A stretch of DNA of 64,000 bases from Bacillota bacterium (GTDB lineage: Bacteria > Bacillota > Clostridia > Christensenellales > DTU072), in contig WQYD01000003.1 of the NCBI GenBank assembly GCA_009781445.1, positions 2,464 to 66,463 of the forward strand, given 5' to 3'. Below, piece by piece: positions 3,845 to 63,317 of this stretch. The first letter of the stretch is position 1; the number at the start of each line of letters is the position of its first letter. The notes under the pieces were generated by a model. That model ran no database searches and was not told the DNA's origin. It was given only the letters and a program-made list of their open reading frames with translations. The position numbers and the translations under genes are program-made.

Positions 3845-4699
3845 ATGAGTTATCAAATTGAACTTGTGTGTAAAATCGGCTCTATGGCACTTATCAATAA
3901 GGCTTACGGCGATGTGGATTATAACATTATCGCAAGGCTTTCGCGTGAATTAAAACCGGGGTATGTTTTGGTTACTTCGGGCGCAACCGAAATCGGGCGG
4001 ATTGATTATTTCAAACGGAACGGCAAAGAACTTGAGGGCGGTTGCAAGGAAGATATTAAAACCGATTATGCCTCTCAAGGGCAAATTGTGCTAATGGAAA
4101 CTTACAGAAGATTTATGAATTCTTCCTATTCCTTGCGCCAATTTTTGGTGGAACACCAACATTTTAATGACGAAAAGAAGCGCGAACACCTTAAAAACGC
4201 ATTGCTTCGTTGCCCTCTCGCCAACGCTGTGCCGATAATTAATTATAACGATCCTGTGAGTGATGAGGAAAACCGCAAACTTGAAATCCGCGCCCTGCGT
4301 GAAAAGCACAGCGGAAAAGCAGTGGCGGAATGCGTGGATAATGACGAAACCGCCTCTGAAATAGCCTGCCTTTTAAAGCCTAAGAACTTAATAATCTTCA
4401 CAGGGGTAGACGGAATTTTTACAAATGTAAACGATCCCGATTCATTAGTGAAAGAAATTTCGGCAAAAACCGCAAGCGAAACGGTGGAAAAAATTAACTA
4501 CTACCAAACCTTTTGCTCAGGCGCAAGCCGTGAGGGCGCAAACGGCGCAGGCATGAAACTGGAATTTATTAAGCAAGCGGTAATAAACGGCACAATCGTG
4601 TTTGTGGCGAACAGCAAATATTCTATTTCGGAAATCTTAAGCGGTGCTAAACCGTGTACGAAGATATTTATCAGCGCACAGCGCACAGTGAAGGAATGA
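3845..4699 (+). CDS. Amino-acid kinase family protein (glutamate-5-kinase-like)
   Basis: KIGSMALIN...VLVTSGATEIGR resembles the aspartate/glutamate/uridylate kinase fold. I prefer the ATG at 3845 over the TTG at 3797. The last residues (SAQRTVKE) and the stop codon lie inside repeat 4672-4804. Confidence 0.45.
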   Translation: MSYQIELVCKIGSMALINKAYGDVDYNIIARLSRELKPGYVLVTSGATEIGRIDYFKRNGKELEGGCKEDIKTDYASQGQIVLMETYRRFMNSSYSLRQFLVEHQHFNDEKKREHLKNALLRCPLANAVPIINYNDPVSDEENRKLEIRALREKHSGKAVAECVDNDETASEIACLLKPKNLIIFTGVDGIFTNVNDPDSLVKEISAKTASETVEKINYYQTFCSGASREGANGAGMKLEFIKQAVINGTIVFVANSKYSISEILSGAKPCTKIFISAQRTVKE

Positions 4700-4804
4700 T
4701 TTATAAGATATTTGATCCACGCCTGTTGCCTATTGCCTAATCAATAATGAGATTTAGAATCCACCATTGTGCGCTGTGCGCTGTGCGCTGTGCGTTGTGC
4801 GCTG
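4672..4804. repeat. Family-1 heptamer-array palindromic element
   Basis: (CAGCGCA)x2.5 - agtgaaggaatga - TTGCCTA-type array - core aataatgagatttagaatccacc - (TGTGCGC)x5. The closest copy is 44863-45015 in the opposite orientation. Confidence 0.9.
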
Positions 4805-6756: not shown

Positions 6757-6867
6757 TAGCTATCACAAAAATCCGATTGCGCTTACCTAAGGGGTTTTTA
6801 TCTACGGAAGCGTAACAATGGGTATAGTTGGAAACGGCTATGCCTCCCGTATTGGAAAGGAAGCAAT

Positions 6868-8886
6868 ATGAAGAAGTTTTTTAAAGTTACCACATTGTTA
6901 TTAGTTCTTGTGTTTGCAGGCACGCTTATTTTAACGGCTTGCAATGACGGAAATCCGAATAGTGCTATAAGCGATGACGATTACACGCTTACTATCAAAG
7001 GCTATTTAGATGACGGCAAAGATCTTGTAATCAAAAAGAGTGTTATCAAAGAGTTTTATGCAGAAAACCCCGATAAGCGCGCACCCGAAGACGGCGAACG
7101 CGTGGCAGGAATCCGCACCCACAAGGTAGACGGAAAGGACGAACTTATCACTTATGAGGTAAGCGGGGTTTATCTTGACGATATTTTGGCACTTTACGGC
7201 GAAAAAACCGCGTCTGACTTTGATGTTATGACGGTTATTTCCTTAGATGACGGCTATGAGAATATTTTAAAGCCCGACATTTTTGATACAACCAAGGGTG
7301 GCGTTAAAATGATTATTGCCCTATTTTATGAGGGTGAAGAATTAACGCAAGAATCCCAATCGGGCGCACTTCGTGCAGTTTTCCCCACAAAGGCTAACAA
7401 CGCTTGGGCAAAGCACCTTTGTGAAATAAGGTTTGGCGAAACCGCCCCTATGCAAGACGCAACCACCACTGCTTACTTTATGGAAACGCTAACGGACTTC
7501 GTGGATACCTTCTCAAAAGGTAACGCTTGGTACAGCGGTGTAAGCATTTCCGCACTTCTTGACGCAGGAATTCTTGCAGATAATGAAGATCTTTATATGT
7601 TCATTACAGGGTTTGACGAAGAAGAAGATTACCTCGTGGTAAAGAATTATCTTAATTACGCAAGCGCATTTTTAACTGATAAAATTTCTTTAACGGGCGA
7701 AAACGGGCAGTATAACGCACTTGCAAAAAGCCCTGTGTTTGACGGCGCGGATTATCTTAACGCATTAAAAATCAGCAACACAGCTTTCTTAACCCTTGGC
7801 AAAACCGCACTTGTTTCTTTTGCACAGCTTGCAGAACGCCACGCAAACGCACAAGGCGATTTAAAAGTTTCAGACATTTTAACCGAACTCAATATGCCTA
7901 AAACAGGCTTAGTTAATTACGAAGTTAAAGATACTAACGGTGAAATGGCGGTGCTTACCGCAGACATTTTCAACTCGGCAACTATTAAATCTGAGGGCGG
8001 TAATTTCGTACTTACCCACGCAAACGGCACGCTTAATATAGCTTCGTTTGTTTGTAAAGAATTTTCATTTTTGTTGGATATTCTTGACGGAAACGGTGAA
8101 TTGCTTCGCACAATAACCACCGCAGATTTAAATAAGCTTAAAGGTACAGTTCTGACGGTAACAAGTGGCGGTGGCGCAGTAACAGAATACCTCGGCTATG
8201 ATTTGGGGCAAGTTTTAACAACTGTTGGCGTGAGAGGCACATTTACAAGCATAACCGTAATAGAAAATGACGGTGGCGAATGGGGCAGAGATATTACCAC
8301 GCTTAACGGCGCGTTTATATCTGTGGGCATTGTAAATGCCAATAACGAACTAACAACGGACGCAAACGGCCCGCGTTATATAGGTGGCTTAAATGTGGGT
8401 GGCAGTAGCACCCGTTCAAGAACGGCTAAAATCCGCTTAGAGGGCTTTGAACCTGCACCCCTACCAATCTATTTTGACGACATTGAGGTTAATATTGAAA
8501 TCGTGCATGACGGAAATTTGCTATTCACTATAAAGAATGAACATTTTGCGGGAATAACCCCAACAGTTCTTATTGCCACCGATAACAACGACCGCCATTA
8601 TTTTTGCTACAGCATTGAGGCAATTTTGGCAAAGGCGAATGTGGACATTAGCGCGCTTGACTTTAACCGCATTGTTGCAAACGGCAAAACCTCACAGGGC
8701 GACCAAAACCAAGATAGGACTTACACCGCTTCGTCTTTGGCAAACACATATATCTCAGTGGCTTTTGGTAGCAATGCTTCAAATATAACCACCGATAGAG
8801 TAAGGTTCTTTATCTATGACCATGAGAAAAACCAAATCGGAACATTCTCACAGTTTACTTACAGGCTTAACCTTGTAACTATTTAA
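6868..8886 (+). CDS. Large extracytoplasmic lipoprotein (hypothetical)
   Basis: Lipobox LILTAC. 672 aa with several internally similar domains. One segment (GALRAVFPTKANNAWAKHLCEIRF) resembles the SUOX-fold Moco-domain C-terminal motif. Confidence 0.55.
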   Translation: MKKFFKVTTLLLVLVFAGTLILTACNDGNPNSAISDDDYTLTIKGYLDDGKDLVIKKSVIKEFYAENPDKRAPEDGERVAGIRTHKVDGKDELITYEVSGVYLDDILALYGEKTASDFDVMTVISLDDGYENILKPDIFDTTKGGVKMIIALFYEGEELTQESQSGALRAVFPTKANNAWAKHLCEIRFGETAPMQDATTTAYFMETLTDFVDTFSKGNAWYSGVSISALLDAGILADNEDLYMFITGFDEEEDYLVVKNYLNYASAFLTDKISLTGENGQYNALAKSPVFDGADYLNALKISNTAFLTLGKTALVSFAQLAERHANAQGDLKVSDILTELNMPKTGLVNYEVKDTNGEMAVLTADIFNSATIKSEGGNFVLTHANGTLNIASFVCKEFSFLLDILDGNGELLRTITTADLNKLKGTVLTVTSGGGAVTEYLGYDLGQVLTTVGVRGTFTSITVIENDGGEWGRDITTLNGAFISVGIVNANNELTTDANGPRYIGGLNVGGSSTRSRTAKIRLEGFEPAPLPIYFDDIEVNIEIVHDGNLLFTIKNEHFAGITPTVLIATDNNDRHYFCYSIEAILAKANVDISALDFNRIVANGKTSQGDQNQDRTYTASSLANTYISVAFGSNASNITTDRVRFFIYDHEKNQIGTFSQFTYRLNLVTI

Positions 8887-8892
8887 GAAGTA

Positions 8893-9747
8893 ATGAAAAA
8901 ACAACGGTTTTTGCAAGCGTTTAGCGCGTATGATTTGATTTTAATCGCGATGCTTACCGCGCTTGCCGTTGCTTTTAAAGTTGTAGTAAAAATGCTTATA
9001 GGACTCATTGCCACACCCCTCGGAATACCGGGGGGTGCTTTGGCAGGCGGATTTTATATGCTTTGGATTCCGCTTACCGTGGCAATAGTGGGAAAGCGCG
9101 GTTCGGCTTTTTTAATGACATTTGTGCAATGCCTTGTGATAATAATCACCGCCATGCCGGGTAGCCACGGTATTTGGACATTTGCCACATACCTGCCACC
9201 TGCTATTTTGGCGGAAGTGGTTATGCTACGCAGAACGCAGGCAAAGCCTGCGAGAGACGAGAGACGAGAGACGAGAGACGAGATAAGGAATGATAACAAT
9301 ATAATTACGAATGACGACTTACGACTTACGAATGATAGAGGTATCAATGAAGATTTCGCAAATCAAAATTCACCACCTCTCGTCTCTCGTCTCTCGTCTC
9401 TCGTCTCTAATCCCTCACAATACACAGTTCTTCACTTCATATTCGCCTGCATTCTTGCAAACCTTGCGGGGACATTCGGAAGTAACCTGCTATTCTTCCG
9501 CCTAGGGTTTGTGCCGTTGTTTTTTGCAATGTCGGCGGGTGCGTTTTCGGGCGCAATGGGCGGTGTGCTTGGGTATTTGGTTTATAAACTTGTGGCAAAA
9601 TCAGGCATTTTTACTGCACACGCAACGCAGTATAAAAATTATAACGAAGAATCGCCAAGTGAATTCTGTGCGCCGAAAGGTGAAACGCCGTGGGAAGAAA
9701 TGAGTCAGCGCACAGCGCATGAAGATATGAAGACGCTACGCTTGTGA
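8893..9747 (+). CDS. Putative ECF-transporter substrate-capture (S) component, carrying an in-frame repeat insertion
   Basis: Polytopic membrane protein (DLILIAMLTALAVAFKVV...) next to ECF A/T genes. Residues encoded by 9253-9408 come from a palindromic element. The C-terminal tail runs into repeat 9705-9958. Confidence 0.45.
   Translation: MKKQRFLQAFSAYDLILIAMLTALAVAFKVVVKMLIGLIATPLGIPGGALAGGFYMLWIPLTVAIVGKRGSAFLMTFVQCLVIIITAMPGSHGIWTFATYLPPAILAEVVMLRRTQAKPARDERRETRDEIRNDNNIITNDDLRLTNDRGINEDFANQNSPPLVSRLSSLVSNPSQYTVLHFIFACILANLAGTFGSNLLFFRLGFVPLFFAMSAGAFSGAMGGVLGYLVYKLVAKSGIFTAHATQYKNYNEESPSEFCAPKGETPWEEMSQRTAHEDMKTLRL
9253..9408. repeat. Family-1 element inserted in frame in a CDS
   Basis: Perfect 30-bp inverted arms, (GAGACGA)x4 at 9253-9282 and (TCGTCTC)x4 at 9379-9408, flank a centre with an ACGACTT array. 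Near-identical copy at 12556-12708. Confidence 0.9.
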
Positions 9748-9958
9748 AGTGCGCCTTTGGCGCGTGAAGACGCTACGCTTGTGAAGACGGCTTCGCCTTA
9801 TTATGGATAATTATATAAACATTCCGCCACGAAAGCAAAGCAACACTTCACAAGTGAACGATAGACGAACGGCTTCACAAGCGTAGCGTCTTCACAAGGC
9901 GAAGCCGTCTTCACTAAACTTCCACCACTATGCCCGTAGCCCAAACACCTATGCCCTA
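9705..9958. repeat. Family-2 element (GTGAAGAC-word type) with GCGCACA and CTATGCC array remnants at its ends
   Basis: Left arm gtgaagacgctacgcttgtgaagacggcttcgcctt is complementary to right arm aaggcgaagccgtcttcacaagcgtagcgtcttcac. The centre is ...cattcc...gcaaagcaaca. Confidence 0.85.
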
Positions 9959-9965
9959 AGAAAAT

Positions 9966-11366
9966 ATGAAAAAACTAACTTTCCTTATCTTCATTTCCCT
10001 ACTCTTCGCCCTGCTGTTTGCTTGTGGTGGTGATTTGGGTGAAAATTTATCCCCTCTTTATATTGAGGTAAACGGCGATATTGTCGGCGTGTCTTTAGCG
10101 GTGGATTTAAATAAGGTTGCAAAGGCGGAATTTAGCACGCAGGACGGAAATCTTAAAGGGCATGAACTTGATAAGATTCTTGCAAAAACTTCCCTAAACT
10201 TTAGCGGTGGCGGAAGCGTAATGATAACCGCTAAGGACGGAACAAGCGCGCTTATTGATTTGGAAAATGCCAAAGGTTGCTTTGTGGTTGAAACTGAAAA
10301 CGGCTTTAACCTCGTTGCGCCCAATCACCCCCGCGTGCTTGGCATTAAGGAAATTAAAGAACTAACGGTGATTTCCAAAAGTAAGGGTGCTGATTTTAAA
10401 ATCCTATACCTTTACGGCGAAGAAAGCTATTCCTTTGGAAATGCGAAAATGCTTTTTTACGAACAAGAAGGGGGCGTGCAAACGCTTAACGGAATAACTG
10501 CACGAAAGTTTACCCCCCTTGCAAAAGCCGTTACCGCGCAGTCTCTTGTGGGTGAAAGCTGTTTTATATATCTTGATAATTTCAATATTGTTAAGAGTGA
10601 TAACAGCAAGGTTTTCTCTTGGGAAAGCGGAAGAGTTTGTTATGACGGCGAAGCGGTTTTCGGCATTGTGGCAGGCGCGGGGGATTTAATTAGTAAAGCG
10701 TTTTATGATATTAAATCCGCACTTGACGGCGGTGAAAAGGTTATTGCTGTGCTACTGGACGGGCTTTCTTTAAACCAAGTGAATATCTTTAATTCTCAGT
10801 TAAGCATTTTAAAAAGCGGTTACTCTGCCACGGCTTCGGTGTATCCTGCGATTTCCAATGTTGCGCTTGCCTCAATTATCACAGGCGCAACCCCTTTTGA
10901 AACGGATATTTACGAAAGAAATGTAAAATTCCCTGCCGTCCCCGATATCTTTGACTATGCAACCGAAACGCTTGGGCTTGAAGCCATTTTCGTGGAAGGA
11001 AATTCCCGCCTTGTGCGCACAAATATAAAGCAGGAATTGCACCCTACAGACGATAACGGATTTACGGATTCAGCCGTGTATCAAACTGCGCGCCAAGCGG
11101 TTATAAATGAGGTTGATTTTGTGTTTGCGCATTTCCACGGAATAGACGATATAAATCATGATTATTCGCCGAACAGTGCCGAAGCCCTTGCAAAAATTAA
11201 AGAAATTGAGGATTATATTGAAAGGCTGATAAGGGGCTTCAGCGGTAAGCTGATAATCATTAGCGATCACGGGCATTCAACCGTGGACGGCAAGGGCGTA
11301 CACGAAGGTGTTTTTGATATTTATAATATGTTCGTACCGTATTACATTTTGGATATAACAGCATGA
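9966..11366 (+). CDS. Lipoprotein with alkaline-phosphatase-superfamily (nucleotide pyrophosphatase/phosphodiesterase-like) domain
   Basis: Lipobox LLFAC. Motifs VLLDGLS, HFHGIDDINHDYSP and IIISDHGHS. The N-terminal domain ends in a SUOX-like motif (NHPRVLGIKEIKELTVI). Confidence 0.6.
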   Translation: MKKLTFLIFISLLFALLFACGGDLGENLSPLYIEVNGDIVGVSLAVDLNKVAKAEFSTQDGNLKGHELDKILAKTSLNFSGGGSVMITAKDGTSALIDLENAKGCFVVETENGFNLVAPNHPRVLGIKEIKELTVISKSKGADFKILYLYGEESYSFGNAKMLFYEQEGGVQTLNGITARKFTPLAKAVTAQSLVGESCFIYLDNFNIVKSDNSKVFSWESGRVCYDGEAVFGIVAGAGDLISKAFYDIKSALDGGEKVIAVLLDGLSLNQVNIFNSQLSILKSGYSATASVYPAISNVALASIITGATPFETDIYERNVKFPAVPDIFDYATETLGLEAIFVEGNSRLVRTNIKQELHPTDDNGFTDSAVYQTARQAVINEVDFVFAHFHGIDDINHDYSPNSAEALAKIKEIEDYIERLIRGFSGKLIIISDHGHSTVDGKGVHEGVFDIYNMFVPYYILDITA

Positions 11367-11920
11367 AAAAACCGATTTCAAAAAATGCGATAATCGCCAT
11401 AGTTCTTATCTTCGTTCTCGCCGTGGCATTCGGGGTGGGGCTTTATTTGATTCTTGATTTTAATAAGGAATTTAAAGAACTTTACGAAAGCGAAAAAATC
11501 CGCATAATATCCAAAGATTTTGTGAAAGATTTTTCTTTTGACGAACTTAAAGAATTAGCAACGCCCAAAACCTTTACCGCAACTTACAAGCCAAACCAAC
11601 GCTTGCCGATAACGCGTGAGTACACGGGCTTTTGCCTTTTGGATATTTTTTCAGCACTTGATATTGAACTAAGCAAAAGTAAGGGCGTTTCATTCATGCC
11701 GTCTGACGGGCGCGAAACGGTTTATAATATAAACGACATACTAACCCCAAACAATGTGTTTATTGCTTTTAAGTGGGACGGAAAGGCTTTCCCCAAAGGC
11801 AATGCGGGCATTTCGCCGTATCCAGACGAAAACGGCGGGCCTTTTGTGGTTATCCGTGCCAAAGATTTAGTAAGCACGAACAGAGTAAAGTGGCTTGTGC
11901 AAATTGAGGTTTTATTTTAA
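11363..11920 (+). CDS. Membrane-anchored protein with SUOX-fold (Moco-domain-like) module
   Basis: N-terminal TM. The C-terminal GGPFVVIRAKDLVSTNRVKWLVQIEV resembles the G.P.R..vP......VKW...IEV motif of YedY/sulfite-oxidase-type domains. ATGA overlap with the upstream gene. Confidence 0.45.
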   Translation: MKKPISKNAIIAIVLIFVLAVAFGVGLYLILDFNKEFKELYESEKIRIISKDFVKDFSFDELKELATPKTFTATYKPNQRLPITREYTGFCLLDIFSALDIELSKSKGVSFMPSDGRETVYNINDILTPNNVFIAFKWDGKAFPKGNAGISPYPDENGGPFVVIRAKDLVSTNRVKWLVQIEVLF

Positions 11921-13350
11921 TGGAAACCGTGCTTGAAATTAAAAATTTAACCTTATCTTACGGCGAAAGGATTTTGTGTGAAAACCTTAATTTTAGCGTG
12001 AACGCAGGCGAAATTGTGGGGGTAAGGGGCGGTAACGGCACAGGAAAATCCACCCTGATAAAGCGGATTTCCGCACTTATGCCCGCAAATTTAAACAGTG
12101 AAGGCAGTGTGCTTTTGTACGGTGCGGAAACGCTTGATTTAAACATTAAGGATAGGTGTACCGCCATTGCCACGATTTTCCAAGAACCCGAAGCACAGCT
12201 TTTTTCCTCTTTCGTGGAAGACGAACTTTCCTTTGCAAACGAAAACCTGCGTGTTCAGCGTGAAGAGATAAGAAAAAGGATAAACGCCGTTTCAGAACTT
12301 ACGGGCATTAGCCATTTAACTGATAGCAAATCCGAAAAGCTATCAGGCGGTGAAAAACAGCTTGTGGCAATAGCCTCTGCTATTTCTTCTTATCCGCGCG
12401 TAATCCTCGCAGACGAAATCACCGCACGGCTTGATTTAGAAGCCCGCACAAGAATAAGAACCCTCTTAAAAGATTTTGCCAAAGCAGGCGGTGCGGTTAT
12501 ATTCGTTCACCACACGGAAGAAGACGGGGGGGTTTGTGATAGGGTTATTGAAATTAGAGACGAGAGACGAGAGACGAGAGACGAGATAAGGAATAATAAT
12601 ATAATTACGAATGACGACTTACGACTTACGAATGATAGAGGTATCAATAATGATTCTATAAATCAAAACTCACCACCTCTCGTCTCTCGTCTCTCGTCTC
12701 TCGTCTCTAATCCCCAACAAACAATCGTCCTCAACAACCTTTCTTTCTCATACCTCAAAACTAAAGCCCTGATAAGCAATTTAAGCATGAGTTTTGAAAG
12801 CGGTAAGTGCTATCTTATTACAGGCAAAAACGGTGCAGGGAAAACTACTCTCGGCAAACTTATTTTGGGGCTTTTAAAGCCTCAAAGCGGAAGTGTGGAA
12901 ATCGGCGGTGAGTGCGTGGCTAAAATGCGGATAGGCAGTGTGGCAAAGAAGATAGGTTATGTGTTTCAGAACCCTGATTTGCAGTTTTTCACAAATTCCG
13001 TTGGGGAAGAATGTGAGTTTAGTTTTAAACTTACAAGCGCATTAACCGATAGTGTAAAAGAAAGAATCAATGATTGTTTAGTTAAGTTTGGGCTACAAGA
13101 CTTTAGAGAACGGAATCCCTTAACGCTGTCTACAGGCGAAAAGCAAAGGCTTGCCCTTGCCATAACTTCTTTAAGCGGTGTTAGTTTTTTATTGCTTGAC
13201 GAACCCACTTCTTCTCTTGATAATGAAGCTAAAAACTTTGTGGTTGATTATATTAAACGCTTTGTGGCGGACGGTGGTGGCGCGATAATTATCACGCATG
13301 ACAGCACGCTTTTAAGCCACTTGCCAGAGGGGGTAATTTATGAAATTTGA
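11920..13350 (+). CDS. ECF/ABC transporter ATPase, fused duplicated NBDs (EcfA-EcfA'), with in-frame repeat insertion in the linker
   Basis: Two Walker A sites (GGNGTGKST, GKNGAGKTT), two signatures (LSGGEKQ, LSTGEKQ) and Walker B motifs (ILADE, LLLDEP). TAATG overlap with the upstream gene. Confidence 0.85.
   Translation: METVLEIKNLTLSYGERILCENLNFSVNAGEIVGVRGGNGTGKSTLIKRISALMPANLNSEGSVLLYGAETLDLNIKDRCTAIATIFQEPEAQLFSSFVEDELSFANENLRVQREEIRKRINAVSELTGISHLTDSKSEKLSGGEKQLVAIASAISSYPRVILADEITARLDLEARTRIRTLLKDFAKAGGAVIFVHHTEEDGGVCDRVIEIRDERRETRDEIRNNNIITNDDLRLTNDRGINNDSINQNSPPLVSRLSSLVSNPQQTIVLNNLSFSYLKTKALISNLSMSFESGKCYLITGKNGAGKTTLGKLILGLLKPQSGSVEIGGECVAKMRIGSVAKKIGYVFQNPDLQFFTNSVGEECEFSFKLTSALTDSVKERINDCLVKFGLQDFRERNPLTLSTGEKQRLALAITSLSGVSFLLLDEPTSSLDNEAKNFVVDYIKRFVADGGGAIIITHDSTLLSHLPEGVIYEI
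12556..12708. repeat. Family-1 element inserted in frame between the two ATPase domains
   Basis: Same 30-bp GAGACGA/TCGTCTC arms as 9253-9408. It differs by one 3-nt indel and a few central substitutions, and is translated in the same frame. Confidence 0.9.
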
Positions 13351-14068
13351 TCCCCGTACAAAGCTATTTATTATCGCAGTTTTAACCGCTGTTTCGGTGT
13401 TTGCGCCAAGCATTTTTTACCTCTTGGGAATCCTATTTGTTACGCTTGTTTTTGATATTATCTTAAAGGTGAATTTTTTAACCGTGCTTAAGCGGTTAAA
13501 GTTTTTATTATCTGCAATCGTGTTTGTGTCCTTAATTCAAAGTTTAACAATTAAGGGCGAACCGCTTATCACAATAAACGGTTTTACCTTAATTAGCTAT
13601 CAAGGCTTAATGCTTGGGCTTGAATTTTTGGTGCGCATGAGTATAATTATATTTGCCTCGGCAATCGCGCTTACCTCAAGCGGTAAGGAAATGACGGACG
13701 CGCTTATTCGGTTAAAGTTTCCTTATGAGGTTGCTTTTATGGTTAGCACGGCAATATCGTTTTTGCCAATGTTCCGTGAGGAATTTTTGCACCGCGTTAC
13801 AGCGGTTAAGCTAAGGGGCATTGATATTAAAAAGCTACCGATAGGCAAAAAATTTAAGGTTTATGCTTTTGTTCTGTCCCCCGCGGTGGTGGGTGGCGCG
13901 ATAAAAAGCCGTGCGCTTGCAGATTCAATGACTGCCAAAGCCTTCCGCGCGCACAGTTCGCGCACAATGCTTAGAGAATTAAAGTTAAAACCGCGTGATT
14001 TTATTGCTATAATATTAGTAGCCTTACTTATGGCAGGGTTCTTTGCAACCCTCATGATTATCGGCTAA
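13340..14068 (+). CDS. ecfT: Energy-coupling factor transporter transmembrane (T) component, CbiQ family
   Basis: 242-aa polytopic protein directly after the double ATPase, with an 11-nt overlap. Typical EcfT size and the coupling-helix region ...ALADSMTAKAFR. Confidence 0.7.
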   Translation: MKFDPRTKLFIIAVLTAVSVFAPSIFYLLGILFVTLVFDIILKVNFLTVLKRLKFLLSAIVFVSLIQSLTIKGEPLITINGFTLISYQGLMLGLEFLVRMSIIIFASAIALTSSGKEMTDALIRLKFPYEVAFMVSTAISFLPMFREEFLHRVTAVKLRGIDIKKLPIGKKFKVYAFVLSPAVVGGAIKSRALADSMTAKAFRAHSSRTMLRELKLKPRDFIAIILVALLMAGFFATLMIIG

Positions 14069-14099
14069 CACGGCAAAAAATGCGGTTATAGGGGGATTT

Positions 14100-14750
14100 A
14101 TGAAAATTTTTAGCGTAACAGGCTTAACGGGTTCGGGAAAAACCACGGTTATTGAAGCTATCATTAGGGAACTTAAATCAAGAGGTTTCAGCGTTGGCAC
14201 GGTTAAAAACATTCACGCGGAAAGTTTTAAAATGGACACTGAGGGAAAAAATACTTGGCGACACCGCAACGCAGGCGCGGATACGGTGGTGGCGCACGCG
14301 CACTATGAAACGGATATTTTATATAATTACCGCCTTCCGCTTCACACTCTTTTAAAGCATTTTACTGAGGATTTTGTGATTCTTGAGGGAATGGGCGAAG
14401 CAAGTGTGGAAAACATTGCCGTGTGCAAAGAGGGTGAAACGCCTCAAATCGGCGATTTAACCGTTGCCGTTAGCGGTAGGTTTGCAAACTCAGGGGTTAA
14501 GGAATTTAAGGGGTTGCCTGTGTTTAACCTAAGTGATATAAAAGCCCTTACGGATTTAATTATAAATAAGGTTTCTTTTGTGCCTGCTAAGGATTTAATT
14601 CATGGCGGAAATGTTGAGGTAAAGGTGAACGGCGAAGTGCTTACCCTTGTGCCGTTTGTGCAAAATATTTTAAAAAATGCGGTTCTTGGGGTAATTAAGG
14701 AACTTAGAGGCTATAACGAAGGCGCAGAAGTTGAGGTTATTTTAAAATGA
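14100..14750 (+). CDS. mobB: MobB-like P-loop protein (molybdopterin-guanine dinucleotide biosynthesis adapter) with C-terminal extension
   Basis: MKIFSVTGLTGSGKTTVIEAIIRELKSRGFSVGTVKNIH...KNTWRHRNAGADTVV matches my recollection of the MobB N-terminal domain. At 216 aa it is longer than typical MobB. Confidence 0.65.
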   Translation: MKIFSVTGLTGSGKTTVIEAIIRELKSRGFSVGTVKNIHAESFKMDTEGKNTWRHRNAGADTVVAHAHYETDILYNYRLPLHTLLKHFTEDFVILEGMGEASVENIAVCKEGETPQIGDLTVAVSGRFANSGVKEFKGLPVFNLSDIKALTDLIINKVSFVPAKDLIHGGNVEVKVNGEVLTLVPFVQNILKNAVLGVIKELRGYNEGAEVEVILK

Positions 14751-15292
14751 AAAACAAGGTAACCTTTAGCGAAAACGGAACGGTTATTAAAGAATTTTTA
14801 ACCTTAAAGGGCTATAAGAAAGAACTTTCCGTGCTTAAAAAAATGAATTGCAACCTTGCCCCAAAAATTATCCGCACGGAAAAAGGCATTATTGAAATGA
14901 GTTTTATAAGCGGTGTAAGCCTTATTGATAAACTTATTGACTTAGAAAAGAACGGCGAATGCCCTGCCCCTACCGCTTCTGCGCTTGCAGAGTTTTTTAA
15001 GGTTTTCCACAGCTTAAATAAATATAAATCATTGGGGGATTTAAATTTTCATAACTTTATTGCCACTGAAAACGGTGAAATTTTCGGTATAGATTACGAA
15101 GAAGTAACGGTGGGAAGTATCTACAGCACTACCGCACGCGCCCTTGCCTTTCTTTATTCGTATAATGATTTATCTGATACAACCAAAGAAACATTTTCCC
15201 AAACCCTTTTATCCGAACTAAAAATCCCCCCCCACCGAATAATTACCCGAATTTTCCGCCATATTATCTTTTTAAAAAAGAGAAGGGGTTGA
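14747..15292 (+). CDS. Small atypical protein-kinase-like protein (Bud32/RIO/Kdo-kinase-like)
   Basis: 181 aa with the pattern ...IIEMSFISGVSL...LGDLNFHNFIATENGEIFGIDYEE (catalytic-loop and DFG-like). ATGA overlap with mobB. Confidence 0.4.
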   Translation: MKNKVTFSENGTVIKEFLTLKGYKKELSVLKKMNCNLAPKIIRTEKGIIEMSFISGVSLIDKLIDLEKNGECPAPTASALAEFFKVFHSLNKYKSLGDLNFHNFIATENGEIFGIDYEEVTVGSIYSTTARALAFLYSYNDLSDTTKETFSQTLLSELKIPPHRIITRIFRHIIFLKKRRG

Positions 15293-17030: not shown

Positions 17031-17205
17031 GTATGATGTGCGCCTTTGGCGCATGATGATATGATGACGCTACGCTAATGATGGGCGGGCAAGCCCGCAT
17101 GAACTGATTTAATTTAGCATTCCTTAATGTTGCGAAGCAACACATCATAAGGCGAAGCCGACATCATACCATCATAAGCGAAGCGACATCATAAGCGCAC
17201 GCGCC
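17031..17205. repeat. Family-2 element (ATGATG-word type)
   Basis: Left half has ATGATG words separated by GC-rich mini-palindromes. The conserved centre is gggcgggcaagcccgcatgaactgatttaatttagcattccttaatgttgcgaagcaaca. The right half has CATCAT words. Confidence 0.85.
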
Positions 17206-17209
17206 CAAC

Positions 17210-20534: not shown

Positions 20535-20546
20535 ACGCATTATGCA

Positions 20547-20683
20547 ATGCACAACGCACAACGCACAGCGCACAATGAAGGATTAATTCAGAATTAAGAA
20601 TTCAGAATGCAGAATTATGGATTAATTAACTAATAATGAGATTTAGAATCTATCATTGTGCGCTGTGCGCTGTGCGCTGTGCA
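20547..20683. repeat. Family-1 heptamer-array palindromic element
   Basis: (CA[A/G]CGCA)x4 - aatgaaggattaatt - (CAGAATT-type)x4 - atggattaattaactaataatgagatttagaatc - (TGTGCGC)x3.5. Confidence 0.9.
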
Positions 20684-20706
20684 TTTTTAACGCTTTGCGT
20701 TAAAAA
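20684..20706. terminator. Bidirectional terminator-like palindrome overlapping a stop codon
   Basis: tttttaacgc-ttt-gcgttaaaaa. The right arm contains the TAA (complement) of CDS 20700..21614. Confidence 0.5.
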
Positions 20707-21663: not shown

Positions 21664-22431
21664 TTAAATTTGAGGATTGGGGCTATTAACCGCCTTGTTC
21701 TTTTTTCCGTAAAACGCTTTCGCCGATGCCACCGCGCCTTTTAAAAGATATTTAAGGAATATCTTTCCAAGTTTGTAAGAAATTATTGCAAGAATTCCAA
21801 GAACCCCTGTGGCAATAAGCAATCCCCCTGCCGTGAATAACGCCCACGGCGTTCCCTCTGTGGCAGAAAGCACCGCCCCTGGGATAACCGCAAGCAGGCA
21901 AGCAAAGGAAGAAACCGCAAGCCCAAGAATCGTACCGCCCACCGCAAACACCGCACTTATAAACAGCACAAAAAACACAATCCCCACAGGAATCAAAATC
22001 GGCGCACTAAAAAGCCTTGCAACCATTGCAATGGTACTGCCTTTTTTAGAGGGTGCAGCTTGCAGGTTGCAGGGTGCAGGGTTGGATTGGTGATTGGTGA
22101 TTGGTGGTTGGTGATTGGTGGCGGAATTATTATTATTAAATAATCCTTCATTCTGAATTCTGAATTCTGAATTCTTAATTAGTCCTTCATTGTGCGCTGT
22201 GCGCTGTGCGCTGTGCATTGAAGAAAGCCTTTCCCCCGCAAGTTCAGCTTGAATTTGACGGCTAATCATTCTTATATCGCCAAGGTTATGCACCACGCGA
22301 TATTCATTTTCGCCTGCCTCAATTTTATCGCTGATAAGTTCGTCATAATAATTTAGCACCCTGTTAAGTTCGTCTGCACTGAACCCTTTTAGGTAAGACG
22401 ATAGTACACTTAAAAATTCATGTTTGTTCAT
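21664..22431 (-). CDS. DUF1700-like membrane protein with repeat-derived linker
   Basis: N-terminus MNKHEFLSVLSSYLKGFSADE...YYDELI is DUF1700-like and the C-terminal half has TM helices. The central ~55 aa are encoded by element 22051-22217. Confidence 0.6.
   Translation of the reverse strand: MNKHEFLSVLSSYLKGFSADELNRVLNYYDELISDKIEAGENEYRVVHNLGDIRMISRQIQAELAGERLSSMHSAQRTAHNEGLIKNSEFRIQNEGLFNNNNSATNHQPPITNHQSNPAPCNLQAAPSKKGSTIAMVARLFSAPILIPVGIVFFVLFISAVFAVGGTILGLAVSSFACLLAVIPGAVLSATEGTPWALFTAGGLLIATGVLGILAIISYKLGKIFLKYLLKGAVASAKAFYGKKNKAVNSPNPQI
22051..22217. repeat. Family-1 module concatenate inside a CDS (non-palindromic)
   Basis: TGCAGGG-type array, GGTGATT array, CTGAATT array, tccttcat junctions, then a (TGTGCGC)x3 array. 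All are read through in frame on the minus strand. Confidence 0.85.
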
Positions 22432-22859: not shown

Positions 22860-23016
22860 CAGCGCACAACGCACAGCGCACAGCGCACAATGAAGGAATC
22901 ATTTATTGATGAGATTTAGATTCCACCATTCGTAAATCGTAAGTCGTAAGTCGTCATTACTCTTAATGAGATTTAGAATCCACCATTGTGCGCTGTGCGC
23001 TGTGCGTTGTGCGCTG
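22860..23016. repeat. Family-1 element with duplicated core
   Basis: (CAGCGCA)x4 - aatgaaggaatc - core 1 (gatgagatttagattccaccatt) - (CGTAAGT)x3 - core 2 (taatgagatttagaatccaccatt) - (GTGCGCT)x4. Confidence 0.9.
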
Positions 23017-23689
23017 TTTTGCGGTTTATGAAATAAACAATAAAAAAGAACCCCGCAAGCAAAGCAAACAGCCCAACATAATATATCGCGTAAAATCCGC
23101 TTATCGCACTTGAGTCAATAATGCCGTTAAAGAGGTTTCCTTCCGCAAGATCCAAAATTACATAACTGCCCTGCGGGTTTATAAGCCACCTCATAAAGAA
23201 TGCGTAGCCCACGGATATGCCCGTGAAAAGAGGGGCTTGCCTTATGTAATGCCTATCAAGTTTGTGGGTAATTAAAAGCGTAAGCCCTGATAGATATAGC
23301 AGTGCGTGATTAAAAGTTGCCATTATAAAAAGGAAAGTTCCGTCATTTTCAAAGAGGTATATTGCTGGGGTGGCAATCCCTGTAAGGAAGTAAAAGAACC
23401 CTGCCACAGGCGCGCAAAACACGGCAAAATTTATTAGCGGTTTTTTATTGGTAAGCACTGCAAGCGAAAAAACAAAATAGCTGATTGCGCTGAATTCAAT
23501 AGGCACTTTGTGGTGAAGCCCCACTATTTGCCAATAAATATATTCAGTAATTTTATATGTTAAGAAAAATATTGCTGAGGAATAAAGCAGAATTTTTGAC
23601 GCTTTTTTGTTATCTTTAAATATGCCGAACACGGCAAGATTTAAGCCTATAAAAATCAGAATTAACAGCAGAGAAAACAGATAAATCAT
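22973..23689 (-). CDS. Polytopic membrane protein (hypothetical)
   Basis: About 7 hydrophobic segments. I prefer the ATG at 23689 (MIYLFSLLL...). The C-terminal [15 protein letters not shown] and the stop lie in repeat 22860-23016. Confidence 0.45.
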   Translation of the reverse strand: MIYLFSLLLILIFIGLNLAVFGIFKDNKKASKILLYSSAIFFLTYKITEYIYWQIVGLHHKVPIEFSAISYFVFSLAVLTNKKPLINFAVFCAPVAGFFYFLTGIATPAIYLFENDGTFLFIMATFNHALLYLSGLTLLITHKLDRHYIRQAPLFTGISVGYAFFMRWLINPQGSYVILDLAEGNLFNGIIDSSAISGFYAIYYVGLFALLAGFFFIVYFINRKTAHNAQRTAHNGGF

Positions 23690-32341: not shown

Positions 32342-32470
32342 TCAGCGCGAAGCGCACAATGGTGGTTTTTTTAATAATGATATTTAGAATCCTTCTCGTT
32401 TCATGTTTCTCGTTTCATGTTTCTCGTTTCATGTTTCTCGTTTCACACGCTACGCATACGCGTAGCGCGC
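32342..32470. repeat. Family-1 element with 14-nt tandem repeat, in the 5' leader of the giant gene
   Basis: cagcgcgaagcgcacaatggtgg - core taataatgatatttagaatcc - (TTCTCGTTTCATGT)x4 - hairpin cgctacg..cgtagcg. Confidence 0.85.
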
Positions 32471-32537: not shown

Positions 32538-32668
32538 TAGCAATATATGCGCGCATGAGGGGAAAAAGGTAAAAAATAGCAAAAACACGCGAAAACGCGG
32601 TAAAATGAACTTAAACTTATGAATTTTAATGGTAAGATTTACTAAGTTTTTACTAAAAGGCATTATTT

Positions 32669-32833
32669 CAGCGCACAGCGCACAGCGCACAGCGCACAGC
32701 GCACAGCGCACAATGGTGGATTCTAAATCTCATTATTGGTTAACTAATCCATAAATTCGTACTTCGTACCTTGTACTTCGTACCTAAATAAATCATTCCT
32801 TCACTGTGCGCTGTGCGCTGTGAATTGTGCGCT
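32669..32833. repeat. Family-1 heptamer-array palindromic element
   Basis: (CAGCGCA)x6 - aatggtggattctaaatctcattatt (core, reverse) - TTCGTAC-type array - aatcattccttcac - (TGTGCGC)x3. Confidence 0.9.
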
Positions 32834-35940: not shown

Positions 35941-36099
35941 TATGAATTATGGAATTTTTTATTAAGAATTTATCTTAATTAGATTTAGAATCCACCATTC
36001 GTAAATCGTAAGTCGTAAGTCGTCATTACTCTTAATGAGATTTAGATTCCACCATTGTGCGCTGTGCGCTGTGCGCTGTGCGCTGTGCGCTGTGCGCTG
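35941..36099. repeat. Family-1 element (one-armed; duplicated core)
   Basis: Degenerate AAGAATT part - core - (CGTAAGT)x3 - core - (TGTGCGC)x6. The inner part is nearly identical to 22905-23016. Confidence 0.9.
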
Positions 36100-36104
36100 A
36101 CACA

Positions 36105-37683: not shown

Positions 37684-37699
37684 TTGTTACACCTTCTTT

Positions 37700-37787
37700 A
37701 ATTAAGAATTCAGAATTCAGAATTCAGAATTGTGGATTAATTAATATTGAAATTAAAATTCCGCCATGTTTCTCGTTTCTCGTTTCA
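37700..37787. repeat. Family-1 element (short)
   Basis: (AAGAATT/CAGAATT)x4 - gtggattaattaat - degenerate core attccgccat - (GTTTCTC)x2.5. Confidence 0.8.
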
Positions 37788-37790
37788 CTT

Positions 37791-39385: not shown

Positions 39386-40525
39386 ATGAACAAAGTTTTT
39401 TTATGTAAAGAAATTGCCAAGGGTGAAACGCGCGTTGCTTTAAACCCTGCCGATGCCAAAAAGCTTATTGAACTCGGATATGAACTATCCGTGCAAAGCG
39501 GTGCGGGTGCTGTGGCAGGATATAAGGATTCGGAATACGAATCCGCAGGTGCAAGCCTTGTGAAAACGCTTAAAGACGGCTATGCTTTTGCAGATATTAT
39601 TATAAGGATTAACAAGCCCGACAGCGTGGCAGGAATTAAGGAAAACACATTGCATGTTAGTTCGCTTGATGTTTTTAACGAAACAGGGCTTGTGCAGGAT
39701 TTTGCAAAAGCAAATGTGAAAGCCGTTAGCCTTGAAATGATGCCCCGTTCCACAATAGCGCAAAAAATGGATATTCAAAGTTCGCAAGCCTCTCTTGCAG
39801 GCTATTATGCGGTGATTCTTGCTTCCTCACGGATTCCCAAAATCTTCCCCATGATGATGACGCCTTCGGGAACAATACCCCCCGTAAGCATTTTTATTAT
39901 CGGCGTGGGCGTGGCTGGGCTTCAAGCTATTGCCACAGCTAAGAGGCTGGGCGCAAGGGTTTCCGCATTTGACACCCGCCCCGTGGTGGAAGAAGAAGTG
40001 AAATCCCTCGGTGCAAAATTCGTTAAAATTGATTTGGGCGAAACAGGGCAAACAGAACAAGGCTACGCCAAAGAACTAACCCCCGAACAAATTGAAATTC
40101 AAAGAAAAGCGCAGGCAAAAGTTTGTGCCTCGTCTAATGTGGTTATTACCACAGCTAAGGTTTTCGGACGCAAAGCCCCCTTACTTTTAACCAAAGAAAT
40201 GATAAGCCAAATGAAAAGCGGTTCAATTATTATAGATATGGCGGTTAAGACGGGCGGAAATGTGGAAGGTTCAGATCCCGAAAGAGATGTGGTTCTTGAA
40301 AACGGCGTAACCATAATCGGCGGTGATTCTCTTGAACGCTTTGTGGCAAAGGACGCAACGGATATGTTTTCAGGAAATATCCTTGCTTTCCTCTCTCACT
40401 TTTGGAATAAAGAAGCTAAATCTTTCAACCTTGACACCGAGGACGAAATTATCAGCGGTTGCTTAATAACCGCAAACGGCGAAGTTGTGAACAGCAGGGT
40501 TAAGCAAGTGTTGGGCAACGCTTAA
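39386..40525 (+). CDS. pntAA: NAD(P) transhydrogenase subunit alpha, part 1
   Basis: 379 aa with an alanine-dehydrogenase/PNT fold and a GVGVAGLQAIATAKRLGA dinucleotide motif, followed by pntAB and pntB. Confidence 0.85.
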   Translation: MNKVFLCKEIAKGETRVALNPADAKKLIELGYELSVQSGAGAVAGYKDSEYESAGASLVKTLKDGYAFADIIIRINKPDSVAGIKENTLHVSSLDVFNETGLVQDFAKANVKAVSLEMMPRSTIAQKMDIQSSQASLAGYYAVILASSRIPKIFPMMMTPSGTIPPVSIFIIGVGVAGLQAIATAKRLGARVSAFDTRPVVEEEVKSLGAKFVKIDLGETGQTEQGYAKELTPEQIEIQRKAQAKVCASSNVVITTAKVFGRKAPLLLTKEMISQMKSGSIIIDMAVKTGGNVEGSDPERDVVLENGVTIIGGDSLERFVAKDATDMFSGNILAFLSHFWNKEAKSFNLDTEDEIISGCLITANGEVVNSRVKQVLGNA

Positions 40526-40531
40526 GCGTTG

Positions 40532-40655
40532 TAATTCAGAATTAAGAATTCAGAATGCAGAATTATGGATTCTAAATATCATTAATAATATAATCTGTCA
40601 TTCGTAAGTAATAATCAATCCGCAATTCTTAATTCTGAATTCTGAATTCTTAATT
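40532..40655. repeat. Family-1 element with CAGAATT arrays on both arms, inside the pnt operon
   Basis: aattcagaattaagaattcagaatgcagaatt ... aattcttaattctgaattctgaattcttaatt flank a reversed core (ggattctaaatatcatta) and cgtaagt. Confidence 0.9.
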
Positions 40656-40674
40656 AAAAAAATAAGAGGTAAAT

Positions 40675-43448: not shown

Positions 43449-43568
43449 TGTGGGTTAGCTTGCTGTGCCGTTACTTTGCCACGGGTTTCACCCGTGGTTA
43501 TGCACATTGCGCCCCCTTGGGTTTCACCCAAGGTTATGCATATCCTGCCCACTACGGGGCAGTTGCGG
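43449..43568. repeat. Family-3 hairpin-cluster repeat
   Basis: gtgtgggttagcttgctgtgccgt...ccacgggtttcacccgtggttatgca...ccttgggtttcacccaaggttatgca...ctgccc..gggcag. Homologous block at 60112-60205. Confidence 0.8.
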
Positions 43569-44862: not shown

Positions 44863-45015
44863 TAATTCAGAATTATTTTTCAGCGCACAGCGCACAACGC
44901 ACAGCGCACAATGTTGGATTCTAAATATCATTATTGATTAGGCAACAGGCAATAGGCGCGGAATTATTATCAATATTTCCTTCACTGTGCGCTGTGCGCT
45001 GTGCGCTGTGCGCTG
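44863..45015. repeat. Family-1 heptamer-array palindromic element
   Basis: (CAGCGCA)x4 - aatgttggattctaaatatcattatt (core, reverse) - AGGCAA[C/T] array - ttccttcac - (TGTGCGC)x4. Reverse-orientation homologue of 4672-4804. Confidence 0.9.
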
Positions 45016-45022
45016 ATTTATG

Positions 45023-45805: not shown

Positions 45806-45813
45806 GATTTTTT

Positions 45814-46025
45814 TGGTGATTGGTGATTTGTGGTTGGTGGTTGGTATTTCAGCGCACAGCGCACAACGCACAGCGCACAGTGAAGGAATTATTTATTTAG
45901 ATACGAAGTGCGAATTGTGAATTACCTAATTTTCAGTTACCGACTGAAAAATTGCTTGTGTTAATTTGTTAATAATGAGATTTAGAATCCGCCATTGCGC
46001 GCTGTGCGCTGTGCGCTGTGCGCTG
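45814..46025. repeat. Family-1 composite element
   Basis: GGTGATT-type array (45814-45846) - (CAGCGCA)x4 - agtgaaggaatt - degenerate GTACGAA array - small hairpin tttcagt/actgaaa - core - (GCGCTGT)x3. Confidence 0.9.
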
Positions 46026-46048
46026 ATTAGTGCGGAACGCGTTCCGCA

Positions 46049-50012: not shown

Positions 50013-50163
50013 TTTAATTCAGAATTCAGAATGCAGAATTATGGAATTATTTATTTAGGTACGAAGTACAAGGTACGAAGTACGAATTATGGATTAATTA
50101 ACTAATAATGAGATTTAGATTCCTTCATGTTTATCGTTTATCGTTTCTCGTTTCTCGTTTCAT
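50013..50163. repeat. Family-1 module concatenate in a divergent intergenic region
   Basis: (CAGAATT)x3 - atggaattatttatttag - (GTACGAA)x4 - ttatggattaattaactaataatgagatttagattccttcat - (GTTT[A/C]TC)x4. Confidence 0.9.
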
Positions 50164-51392: not shown

Positions 51393-51611
51393 TGAAGACG
51401 GCTACGCCTTATGAAGTCGCGTGCGCTGCACGCTTGTGAAGACGGCTACGCCTCATGAAGACGCTACGCTTATGGAGCGCGGGCGCGCCCGCATGAACTG
51501 ATTAAATTTAGCATTCCTTCATGTTGCAAAGCAACACTTCACAAGTGAACGAAGTGAACGACTTCACAAGCAAACTTGTTTGCGTCTTCACGCGCAAAAG
51601 GCGCACTTCAT
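51393..51611. repeat. Family-2 element (GTGAAGAC/ATGAAG-word type)
   Basis: Left words are gtgaagac/atgaag plus GC-rich mini-hairpins. The centre is gcgcgggcgcgcccgcatgaactgattaaatttagcattccttcatgttgcaaagcaaca. Right words are cttcac. Confidence 0.85.
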
Positions 51612-54700: not shown

Positions 54701-54726
54701 AAAAACCGCCGAAAGGCGGTTTTTTC
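54701..54726 (+). terminator. Rho-independent terminator
   Basis: aaaaaccgcc-gaaa-ggcggttttt followed by T. Repeat 54727-54856 starts immediately after it. Confidence 0.75.
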
Positions 54727-54856
54727 AGCGCACAATGCACAGCGCACAATGATTGATTCTAAATATCATTATAGATTAATCCATAATTCTGCATTCTGAA
54801 TTCTTAATTCTGAATTAATCCTTCATTGTGCGCTGTGCATTGTGCGCTGTGCGCTG
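54727..54856. repeat. Family-1 heptamer-array palindromic element
   Basis: (CAGCGCA/CAATGCA)x3 - aatgattgattctaaatatcatta (core, reverse) - AATTCTG-type array - aatccttcat - (TGTGCGC/TGTGCAT)x4. Reverse orientation of 20547-20683. Confidence 0.9.
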
Positions 54857-54858
54857 AA

Positions 54859-55855: not shown

Positions 55856-56006
55856 CAGCGCACAATGCACAGCGCACAGCGCACAATGAAGGATTCTAAA
55901 TCTTATTATTAGTTAACTAATCCATAATTCGTACTTCGTACCCTGTACTTCGTACTTAAATAAATAATTCCACCATTGTGCGCTGTGCATTGTGCGCTGT
56001 GCGCTG
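55856..56006. repeat. Family-1 heptamer-array palindromic element
   Basis: (CAGCGCA/CAATGCA)x4 - aatgaaggattctaaatcttattatt (core, reverse) - TTCGTAC array - aattccaccat - (TGTGCGC/TGTGCAT)x4. Confidence 0.9.
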
Positions 56007-57466: not shown

Positions 57467-57478
57467 GAATTAAGAAAT

Positions 57479-59918: not shown

Positions 59919-59986
59919 GTACGAAGTACGAATTAAGGATTAATTCAGAATTAAGAATTCAGAATGCAGAATTGTGGATTAATTCC
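59915..59986. repeat. Family-1 fragment (GTACGAA and CAGAATT arrays), overlapping the kinase stop codon
   Basis: gtaagtacgaagtacgaattaaggattaattcagaattaagaattcagaatgcagaattgtggattaatt. Confidence 0.85.
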
Positions 59987-63299: not shown

Positions 63300-63317
63300 T
63301 GCGGGGCATTATGTGTT

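Follow-up and report, generated by a model that had tools for sequence, protein, structure and literature searches.

Two in-frame copies of a palindromic element in an ECF transporter operon

We analyzed a stretch of 64,000 nucleotides (positions 2,464 to 66,463 of contig WQYD01000003.1, assembly GCA_009781445.1; hereafter, the window) from the metagenome-assembled genome (MAG) of a Bacillota bacterium. The subject of this work is a small palindromic element that lies in frame between the two nucleotide-binding domains (NBDs) of a fused energy-coupling factor (ECF) ATPase, EcfA-EcfA' (copy B), and recurs in frame in the gene for the ECF S-component of the same operon (copy A) (Table 1). The fused open reading frame (ORF) contains two ABC_tran domains (ECF_ATPase_1/2) and is located by the genes for EcfT (CbiQ) and the S-component, identifying the host genes of copy B as an ECF ATPase pair. 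The operon (6868-15292) encodes an Oxidored_molyb-like lipoprotein, the S-component, a phosphodiesterase-like protein, EcfAA', EcfT/CbiQ, and MobB, and directly upstream of it a molybdenum cofactor (Moco) riboswitch (RF01055) was detected at 6762-6876 on the + strand (57.7 bits, E = 3e-11). The gene content suggests that the ECF transporter may be linked to molybdenum or tungsten cofactor metabolism.

In each copy of the element, an inverted pair of tandem-heptamer arms enclosed two connectors and one inner heptamer block. The first-pass annotation had described copies A and B as near-identical, with identical 30-bp arms, a single 3-nt indel, and the same reading frame, and both direct reading and alignment bore this out. 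The 30-nt inverted arms were perfectly complementary and showed no difference between the two copies, one 3-nt indel (an additional GAT codon in copy A) and eight substitutions over 86 aligned positions separated the centers, and both copies were read in the same frame inside their ORFs. A 22-mer of the arm occurred eight times in the window, every time within copies A and B, whereas shuffled sequences gave an expectation of 0.00. RNA folding predicted perfect outer stems of 31-34 bp in both copies, with a minimum free energy of -71.1 kcal/mol for copy B (34-bp outer stem, z -9.9) and -69.5 kcal/mol for copy A (z -8.1).

Table 1. The palindromic element, its host genes, and related repeat loci. 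Coordinates refer to the window unless another contig is named.
Feature	Coordinates	Strand	Description
ECF S-component ORF	8893-9747	+	PF09819 (ABC_cobalt); 284 aa vs 180-240 aa for the majority of homologues
Copy A	9253-9408	+	156 nt; in frame, aa 121-172 of the ECF S-component
Copy A arms	9253-9282 (left), 9379-9408 (right)	+	AGAGACGAGAGACGAGAGACGAGAGACGAG (left) and CTCGTCTCTCGTCTCTCGTCTCTCGTCTCT (right); identical to copy B arms
Fused ECF ATPase ORF	11920-13350	+	NBD1 11920-12555, element, NBD2 12709-13350; Pfam ABC_tran x2, TIGR04520/TIGR04521
Copy B	12556-12708	+	153 nt; in frame, aa 213-263 of fused EcfA-EcfA'
Copy B left arm	12556-12585	+	AGAGACGAGAGACGAGAGACGAGAGACGAG; 4.4 tandem AGAGACG units; same in copies A, B, and C
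Copy B inner heptamer block	12605-12631	+	ACGAATG ACGACTT ACGACTT ACGAATG; period 7 by TRF
Copy B right arm	12679-12708	+	CTCGTCTCTCGTCTCTCGTCTCTCGTCTCT; 4.6 CTCTCGT units; exact reverse complement of left arm
Copy B 3' tail	12709-12717	+	AATCCCCAA
Copy C	L122 2372-2524		153 nt, same arms as A and B; N-terminal tail of P0121, beside other heptamer modules
E06, third in-frame family member	22050-22220	-	171 nt; inside HAAS-domain membrane protein ORF 21664-22431
Inner-block carrier, intergenic	22927-22958	-	Same heptamer block as A and B; another match at 35996-36027
Intergenic family members	4672-4804, 20537-20685, 22860-23017, 32343-32450, 32668-32833, 35972-36100, 37689-37788, 40522-40659, 44873-45016, 45813-46026, 50016-50162, 54719-54858, 55856-56006, 57277-57467, 59917-59984, 63317-63476

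Insertion sites and origin of the ecfA-ecfA' fusion

It had been proposed from the sequence that the insertions are tolerated at permissive sites, and comparisons with homologues and structural models supported this at both places. The S-component insert was absent from all 15 aligned homologues (43-56% identical overall), in which a loop of ~6 residues corresponded to the ~60-residue element-containing stretch of the window protein. The AlphaFold model placed the insert between the helices at residues 95-115 and 179-202 (predicted helices 4 and 5), with a mean predicted local distance difference test score (pLDDT) of ~47-57, as against 85-97 for the helices. Since no solved structure matching the S-component was found by sequence or by profile, its topology was deduced from the predicted helices and the positive-inside rule, by which the helix 4-5 loop would be cytoplasmic. 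Moreover, a 13-kb contig of a relative (L124; 42% GC) with the same operon order as the window (phosphodiesterase-like gene, S-component, small Oxidored_molyb-like gene, two ATPases, CbiQ, and MobB) encoded an S-component of 213 aa and had empty sites at both insertion places.

The location of copy B between NBD1 and NBD2, as first annotated, was confirmed by domain matches, which ended at ~aa 218 for NBD1 and began at aa 266-269 for NBD2, with copy B between the two ABC_tran domains and a protein order of ...CDRVIEI, the element, and NPQQTIVLNNLSFSY. In the AlphaFold model of the fused protein, the NBDs mostly had a pLDDT of 84-96 and the insert one of 28-60, falling below 50 for residues 217-225 and 231-263.

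The first reading had also treated this place as a linker that already existed between two domains of one protein, and a comparison of ecfA in relatives argued against it. The two closest relatives, to which NBD1 was 63% (L124) and 59% (L123) identical and NBD2 57% identical (L124), have separate overlapping genes. In L124, ecfA (6908-7543) and ecfA' (7540-8196) overlap in TTATGA; in L123, whose ecfA ends in ...IIEVKSED*, the GTG start codon of ecfA' precedes that stop codon by 11 nt in a GTG...TGA overlap. The ends of the relatives' ecfA (...IDL* and ...IEVKSED*) coincided with the start of the window's element. On the other side, the QT following copy B aligned with the first two residues (MK) of L124 EcfA', the sixth residue after the element corresponded to L124 residue 3, and the CAA ACA codons after the tail occupied the position of the relatives' ecfA' start codon. 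Because the relatives' ecfA and ecfA' end and start exactly at the position of the element, the element most likely created the fusion, copy B having replaced the stop/start junction, and the fused state, rather than the split state of the relatives, would be the derived one. No ATG, GTG, or TTG was present between copy B and the first conserved strand of NBD2, so that NBD2, lacking a start codon of its own, could be produced only by translation through the element.

Alternatively, ecfA-ecfA' may originally have been one gene into whose linker the element dropped, the separate genes of the relatives reflecting a secondary split. Many distant homologues (30-36% identity, 460-610 aa) are indeed natural fusions with their own linkers of 30-40 aa, which counts for this alternative and against a fusion made by the element. 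However, the two closest relatives, which are distinct in sequence, each have two genes, with differing stop/start overlaps at the element position, and the window protein minus the element has almost no linker (VIEI, then NPQ, then QT, the last aligned to MK). Additionally, a second ATPase pair in the same MAG is joined by a different module, as detailed in the next section. We regard a prior linker as a rather unlikely origin of the arrangement.

Further copies in the same organism

When the 53-aa peptide of the element served as the query of an exhaustive HMMER search over 1.84 billion representative proteins, only three were retrieved, namely the two window proteins and P0121, a 329-aa membrane-anchored protein encoded on another contig (L122) of the same sample; a word-index protein search with the same peptide gave no match. 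The DNA of the P0121 gene carries copy C. The three DNA copies shared exact boundaries and identical arms in unrelated contexts, with centers 91-97% identical. AATC directly followed the right arm in all three, and an Asn codon stood at this place in five of five copies, counting the protein-level copies described below. Upstream of copy C (L122 ~2345-2362) lay an AGAACGC GGAACGC block with a small hairpin (AACGCG-GAA-CGCGTT), and copy A was preceded at 9229-9252 (+ strand) by a two-unit heptamer (ACGCAGA ACGCAGG) with a 7-bp hairpin (CGCAGGC-AAA-GCCTGCG), which codes for S-component loop residues without alignment to homologues; copy B lacked such an upstream (R)GAACGC-type two-unit heptamer and small hairpin. 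The insertions at A and C may be composites of more than one module, 9229-9252 being a possible extra module.

The remaining copies were found at the protein level in P0002 (MCL2629974.1), a 704-aa protein in which the RDERRE... peptide occurs twice, in the first beta-hairpin of EcfA1 and in a C-terminal extension. P0002 is an EcfA1-EcfA2 fusion, with residues 81-314 matching EcfA1 chains and residues 359-635 matching EcfA2 from residue 2-4. The stretch joining EcfA1 to EcfA2, NSEFRIQNEGNIDNNSTPMPYALCPMPS, corresponded to translated AATTCAG- and CCCTATG-type heptamer modules, and the NSEFRIQNEG of this junction (NSEFRIQNEG...PMPYALCPMPS) is also encoded by another element of the window, E06. 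The protein sequence suggests that another gene fusion of this type occurred. Since the accessions are close to each other (MCL2629974, MCL2630030, MCL2630033, MCL2631151), we took the five copies as belonging to one MAG, which therefore carries at least three in-frame copies beyond A and B (copy C and the two in P0002). Scans of metagenome contigs with the element center and with a family connector gave zero matches, as did two scans of viral contigs, and blastn against plasmids and phages gave no match.

The presence of the ~52-aa peptide in four proteins of one genome, three of which are ECF-transporter components, could mean that the peptide itself is a selected protein module recruited to several proteins, with the palindromic DNA being secondary; a fused EcfAA' would, besides, physically need some linker. 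The sequence differences among the copies do not favor this explanation. Two codon differences were synonymous and five were non-synonymous, so that we saw no sign of purifying selection on the peptide, and both structural models were of low confidence for the insert. Furthermore, the peptide was absent outside this organism among the proteins searched, and its sequence follows from a DNA architecture common to non-coding intergenic elements. A selected protein module therefore has, in our estimate, little chance of being the explanation.

An assembly artefact, in which a short-read assembler joined unrelated fragments via a collapsed repeat, was also considered, because the repeats do interrupt short-read contigs of this organism: assemblies ended at or near them at ~51346 of the window (the start of ENA contig k141_6335072) and at the end of contig L129. 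Many assemblies are therefore likely to lack element-bearing genes or to contain them in truncated form. Nevertheless, both flanks of each copy were collinear with single orthologous genes or with an orthologous operon, the frames were intact on both sides, each of the three copies had private substitutions, and the identical protein is on record from NCBI, JGI, and ENA sources. We give this explanation almost no weight.

The element as a subfamily of a modular heptamer-repeat family

Rather than standing alone, the element proved to be one subfamily of a modular and otherwise almost wholly intergenic family. Approximately 20 loci in the window were built of tandem-heptamer blocks. The family is characterized by period-7 arrays of ~10 different units (including CAGCGCA, GTACGAA, AATTCAG, TTTCTCG, AAGTCGT, GATTGGT, CCCTGCA, and TAGGCCA) with recurring connectors between the blocks, including AATGAAGGAATnATTTATT, AATAATGAGATTTAGAATCCACCATT, and TTATGGATTAATTAAC, which the connector motifs of copies A and B resemble. 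In most of the loci of at least 130 nt, the outer blocks were complementary and folded to long stems. A 22-nt core of the inner block of copies A and B (AATGACGACTTACGACTTACGA) had exact reverse complements at 22937-22958, 36006-36027, and L122 3430-3451 (E = 3e-7). On the basis of this exact 22-nt match to intergenic elements, we assigned copies A and B to this family.

The family made up 33% of the intergenic DNA of the window, and 17 of its 20 loci were intergenic, while 89% of the window is coding; the family is thus normally absent from genes. The AGAGACG subfamily, to which copies A and B belong, was intragenic at both of its loci in the window, compared with 1 of the 18 remaining loci (Fisher p = 0.016). 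That remaining intragenic locus, E06, contained heptamers differing from those of A and B (CAGCGCA, AATTCAG, ACCAATC, and CCCTGCA), and its translation (SAQRTAH...NSEFRIQNEG...TNHQPPITNHQ) separated the HAAS domain of its host protein from the membrane part.

Intergenic members frequently spanned a whole spacer, from the stop codon of one gene to the next gene, most of them with long outer stems. For ORFs 3845-4699 and 22973-23686, the repeat supplied the stop codon together with the codons just before it (4672-4699 and 22973-23017, respectively), and the S-component tail SQRTAH was encoded by (CAGCGCA)2 at 9706-9719. On L124, the product orthologous to window ORF 14747-15292 was extended by 10 residues through a 30-nt in-frame heptamer array (ACGATTC/ACGATGC; 9940-9975), and heptamer arrays with a family-like connector (1657-1740) came straight after the stop codon of a cation-efflux gene. 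Given these arrays on L124, the repeat family seems older than insertions A and B.

Reading frame of the intragenic copies

The first-pass annotation had asked whether the shared frame of the copies exceeds what stop-codon content predicts, and we found that it does not. Frame +0 alone of the six frames was stop-free in copies A, B, and C. Likewise, each of the fully intragenic loci A, B, and E06 had exactly one open frame of six, which was the one in use, and the lengths of all three were divisible by 3. Because a surviving intragenic copy must use the sole open frame, the shared frame is uninformative beyond stop-codon content. The open frame itself was unremarkable, since at least one open frame appeared in 43-50% of shuffles of the center, and the idea that the element has a frame bias of its own was accordingly rejected. 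The informative contrast was within the family, where, unlike the three intragenic loci, none of the 11 intergenic loci of at least 130 nt had an open frame. Canonical connectors hold TGA, TAA, and TAG in several frames, and the AGAGACG subfamily reads ATA AGG AAT at the stretch where the canonical motif would read TGA AGG AAT.

Conservation of the arms and a possible RNA-level role

A further claim was that the hairpin arms are under constraint. The arms were indeed unchanged in the three DNA copies, and the case for constraint was weak. Among copies A, B, and C, no position varied in the arms (62 nt) or in the inner block and the sequence flanking it (44 nt), so that the inner block was as invariant as the arms, and all 10 substitutions and the indel were confined to two connector patches. 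The contrast between 0 changes in 62 arm positions and 10 in ~91 center positions gave p ~0.006 on the assumption of independent changes, and p ~0.07 when the six of them that fell inside one 11-nt patch were treated as one event. In the wider family, compensation was patchy: arm variants were compensated in E07 and E17 and uncompensated in E05, E14, and E15. Maintenance of the hairpin is plausible from these comparisons; alternatively, the three insertions may be very recent, and the variable patches may reflect the diversity of source copies at module junctions. Generation of the arms anew at each insertion was rejected, as all three copies had 4.4/4.6 units, compared with 2.4 to 6.3 in other members.

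The hairpin could instead be a functional RNA or DNA signal, such as an RNase III site, an mRNA stabilizer, or a translational brake adjusting subunit ratios, with the peptide being incidental. REP (repetitive extragenic palindromic)-type elements act as such signals, and the very stable perfect stems, the invariance of the arms across three copies, and the presence of family members in operon-internal spacers, for example, between the pnt genes (40522-40659), are compatible with this possibility. The setting of the copies within ORFs argues otherwise: translating ribosomes would melt the stem, and after its cleavage ecfA would lack a stop codon and ecfA' a start codon. No T-run followed the arms, no terminator-like site coincided with copy A or B, and Rfam 15 at the gathering score gave no match to either copy, its sole match in the window being the Moco riboswitch. 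A role as an intrinsic terminator or promoter and membership in a known RNA family were rejected on these grounds. An RNA-level role of the intragenic copies is thus unlikely, also because stem cleavage would orphan both mRNA halves. Moreover, in other proteins the element also occurs in tails at the N- and C-terminus and in a beta-hairpin loop, places that share no common regulatory logic, and the arms of several intergenic relatives decay uncompensated. Taken together, we consider a functional signal of this sort very improbable.

Proposed origin and spread of the element

We favor the interpretation, to which we assign a probability of about 80%, that copy B represents a small dispersed repeat, non-autonomous and hairpin-forming, that persists in its sole open phase and fused ecfA with ecfA'. 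The element would be a palindromic repeat that spreads by being copied by some enzyme, and its insertions into genes would normally be lost, with copies in other phases filtered out by selection. As the AGAGACG subfamily is 3n long and stop-free in one of six frames, its intragenic copies could persist in that orientation and phase alone. Persistence would be limited to sites where ~52 polar residues are harmless, such as the helix 4-5 loop of the S-component, the ends of proteins, and junctions between genes. Operon-internal gene junctions are a normal habitat of the family, and an insertion there could turn two genes into one. In the case of copy B, the element would have landed on the overlapping stop and start codons of ecfA and ecfA', removing the stop codon, while the start codon would since have been lost or replaced. 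The two ATPase subunits would now form one polypeptide, tethered by the element-encoded linker.

Several points besides the naturally fused distant homologues weigh against this interpretation. No target-site duplication was found at the flanks of copies A, B, and C. The Pfam annotations of the genes in the window included no transposase, RAYT-like, or Y1-transposase gene, so that mobility is suggested by the distribution of the copies alone. The translation of the element is presumed from the sequence, and copy C, in the N-terminal tail of P0121, could belong to the 5' untranslated region if the called start codon is wrong. Finally, the copies outside the window were found via a protein search, which sees in-frame copies alone; this set is therefore biased to in-frame copies and unusable for estimating a frame preference.

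Comparison with known repeat elements

The nearest counterparts among known repeats are Rickettsia palindromic elements and the heptamer-repeat elements of cyanobacteria; for the latter, in-frame coding copies and gene fusions are not known to be a feature. Elhai and colleagues reportedly described in 2008 tandem heptamer repeats of cyanobacteria (STRR) that contain small dispersed repeats (SDR), in which variable heptamer arrays are joined by short conserved units, often inverted, hairpin-forming, and mainly intergenic. The present family is similar in its variable heptamer arrays flanking short conserved dispersed units, its hairpins, and its mostly intergenic location. It differs in phylum, and its connectors read AATGRWGGAWT... 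and ...GAGATTTAGAATCCACCATT; the likeness is one of architecture.

Rickettsia palindromic elements (RPEs; Ogata et al. 2000, as summarized in PMC10969869) are palindromic repeats of ~150 bp found in frame in unrelated genes at sites compatible with protein folding; they contribute a conserved peptide, and only some RPE families are ORF-compatible. The present element resembles RPEs in being an in-frame palindromic repeat of ~150 bp that inserts a peptide at fold-compatible sites of unrelated protein genes. In contrast, its host is a Bacillota (Firmicutes) MAG, its arms are tandem heptamers, it is a composite belonging to a mostly intergenic family, and one of its copies fuses genes. Because the host differs and the peptide was absent elsewhere among the representative proteins, we do not count it as a member of the RPE families.

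[quoted passage not shown] The element is MITE-like in its length (153-156 nt, below the ~300-500 bp taken for MITEs), its lack of a transposase, its multiple copies (three in DNA and two at the protein level), its perfect 30-nt terminal inverted arms, and its occasional inclusion in host protein ORFs. Unlike MITEs, it had no target-site duplication and no parent insertion sequence with matching ends in the window, and its arms, simple arrays of heptamers that vary from one family member to another, are unlike transposase-binding ends.

REP elements and REPINs are mobilized by RAYT transposases (PMC3116915). The family shares with them the formation of hairpins, high copy number, and a mostly intergenic location, often by gene 3' ends and terminators, but it is composed of heptamer arrays and connectors rather than REP doublets, and no RAYT-like gene lies in the window.

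Bacteria commonly contain heptamer arrays of one kind or another (PMC4679880). Among the matches listed, (GAGACGA)n arrays came from many phyla, and solo (GAGACGA)3+ arrays were frequent in Fibrobacter, Gemmatimonadota, Rikenellaceae, Sorangium, and others. An inverted-repeat element with (GAGACGA)n arms and a structured center was observed at 1447-1604 of L107 (Gemmatimonadota MAG JANYLJ010000067.1, 65% GC); (GAGACGA)n sequences were noted in L053, L088, and L092 as well. Judging from these sequences, heptamer-armed hairpins may be widespread. A tentative idea, which we think possible but doubtful, is that heptamer-armed elements, in parallel to the cyanobacterial ones, represent a distinct mobile class that spreads without transposase-type ends or target-site duplication, and that one ORF-compatible subfamily served as a linker cassette that repeatedly remodeled proteins, including two independent ECF ATPase fusions whose function would now depend on translation of the element. 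In-frame palindromic insertions are already known, and the heptamer-armed Bacillota variant that fuses ECF ATPase genes appears to be undescribed.

Other repeats in the window

A second palindromic family was found in intergenic positions at 9720-9965, 17031-17209, and 51420-51600. The three copies had a mean column identity of 65%, with arms of the ATGAAGACGCTACGC...GCGTAGCGTCTTCA type and a conserved center (...ATTTAATTTAGCATTCCTTCATGTTGCAAAGCAACA...). Additionally, small GC-rich hairpin repeats of the CCACGGGTTTCACCCGTGG type occurred in tandem at 43474-43557 and 60145-60192, adjoining heptamer modules. These hairpins look like a third, REP-like repeat type.

Implications

On the practical side, such elements fragment short-read assemblies and lead to inflated or fused gene calls in MAGs. 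If the proposed origin is correct, a selfish palindromic repeat would have acted as a natural protein engineer, turning two translationally coupled subunit genes into a gene for a single-chain ATPase and adding a long, probably disordered loop to a membrane protein. The phenomenon known from RPEs would thereby be extended to free-living or host-associated Bacillota and tied to the poorly understood heptamer-repeat elements.

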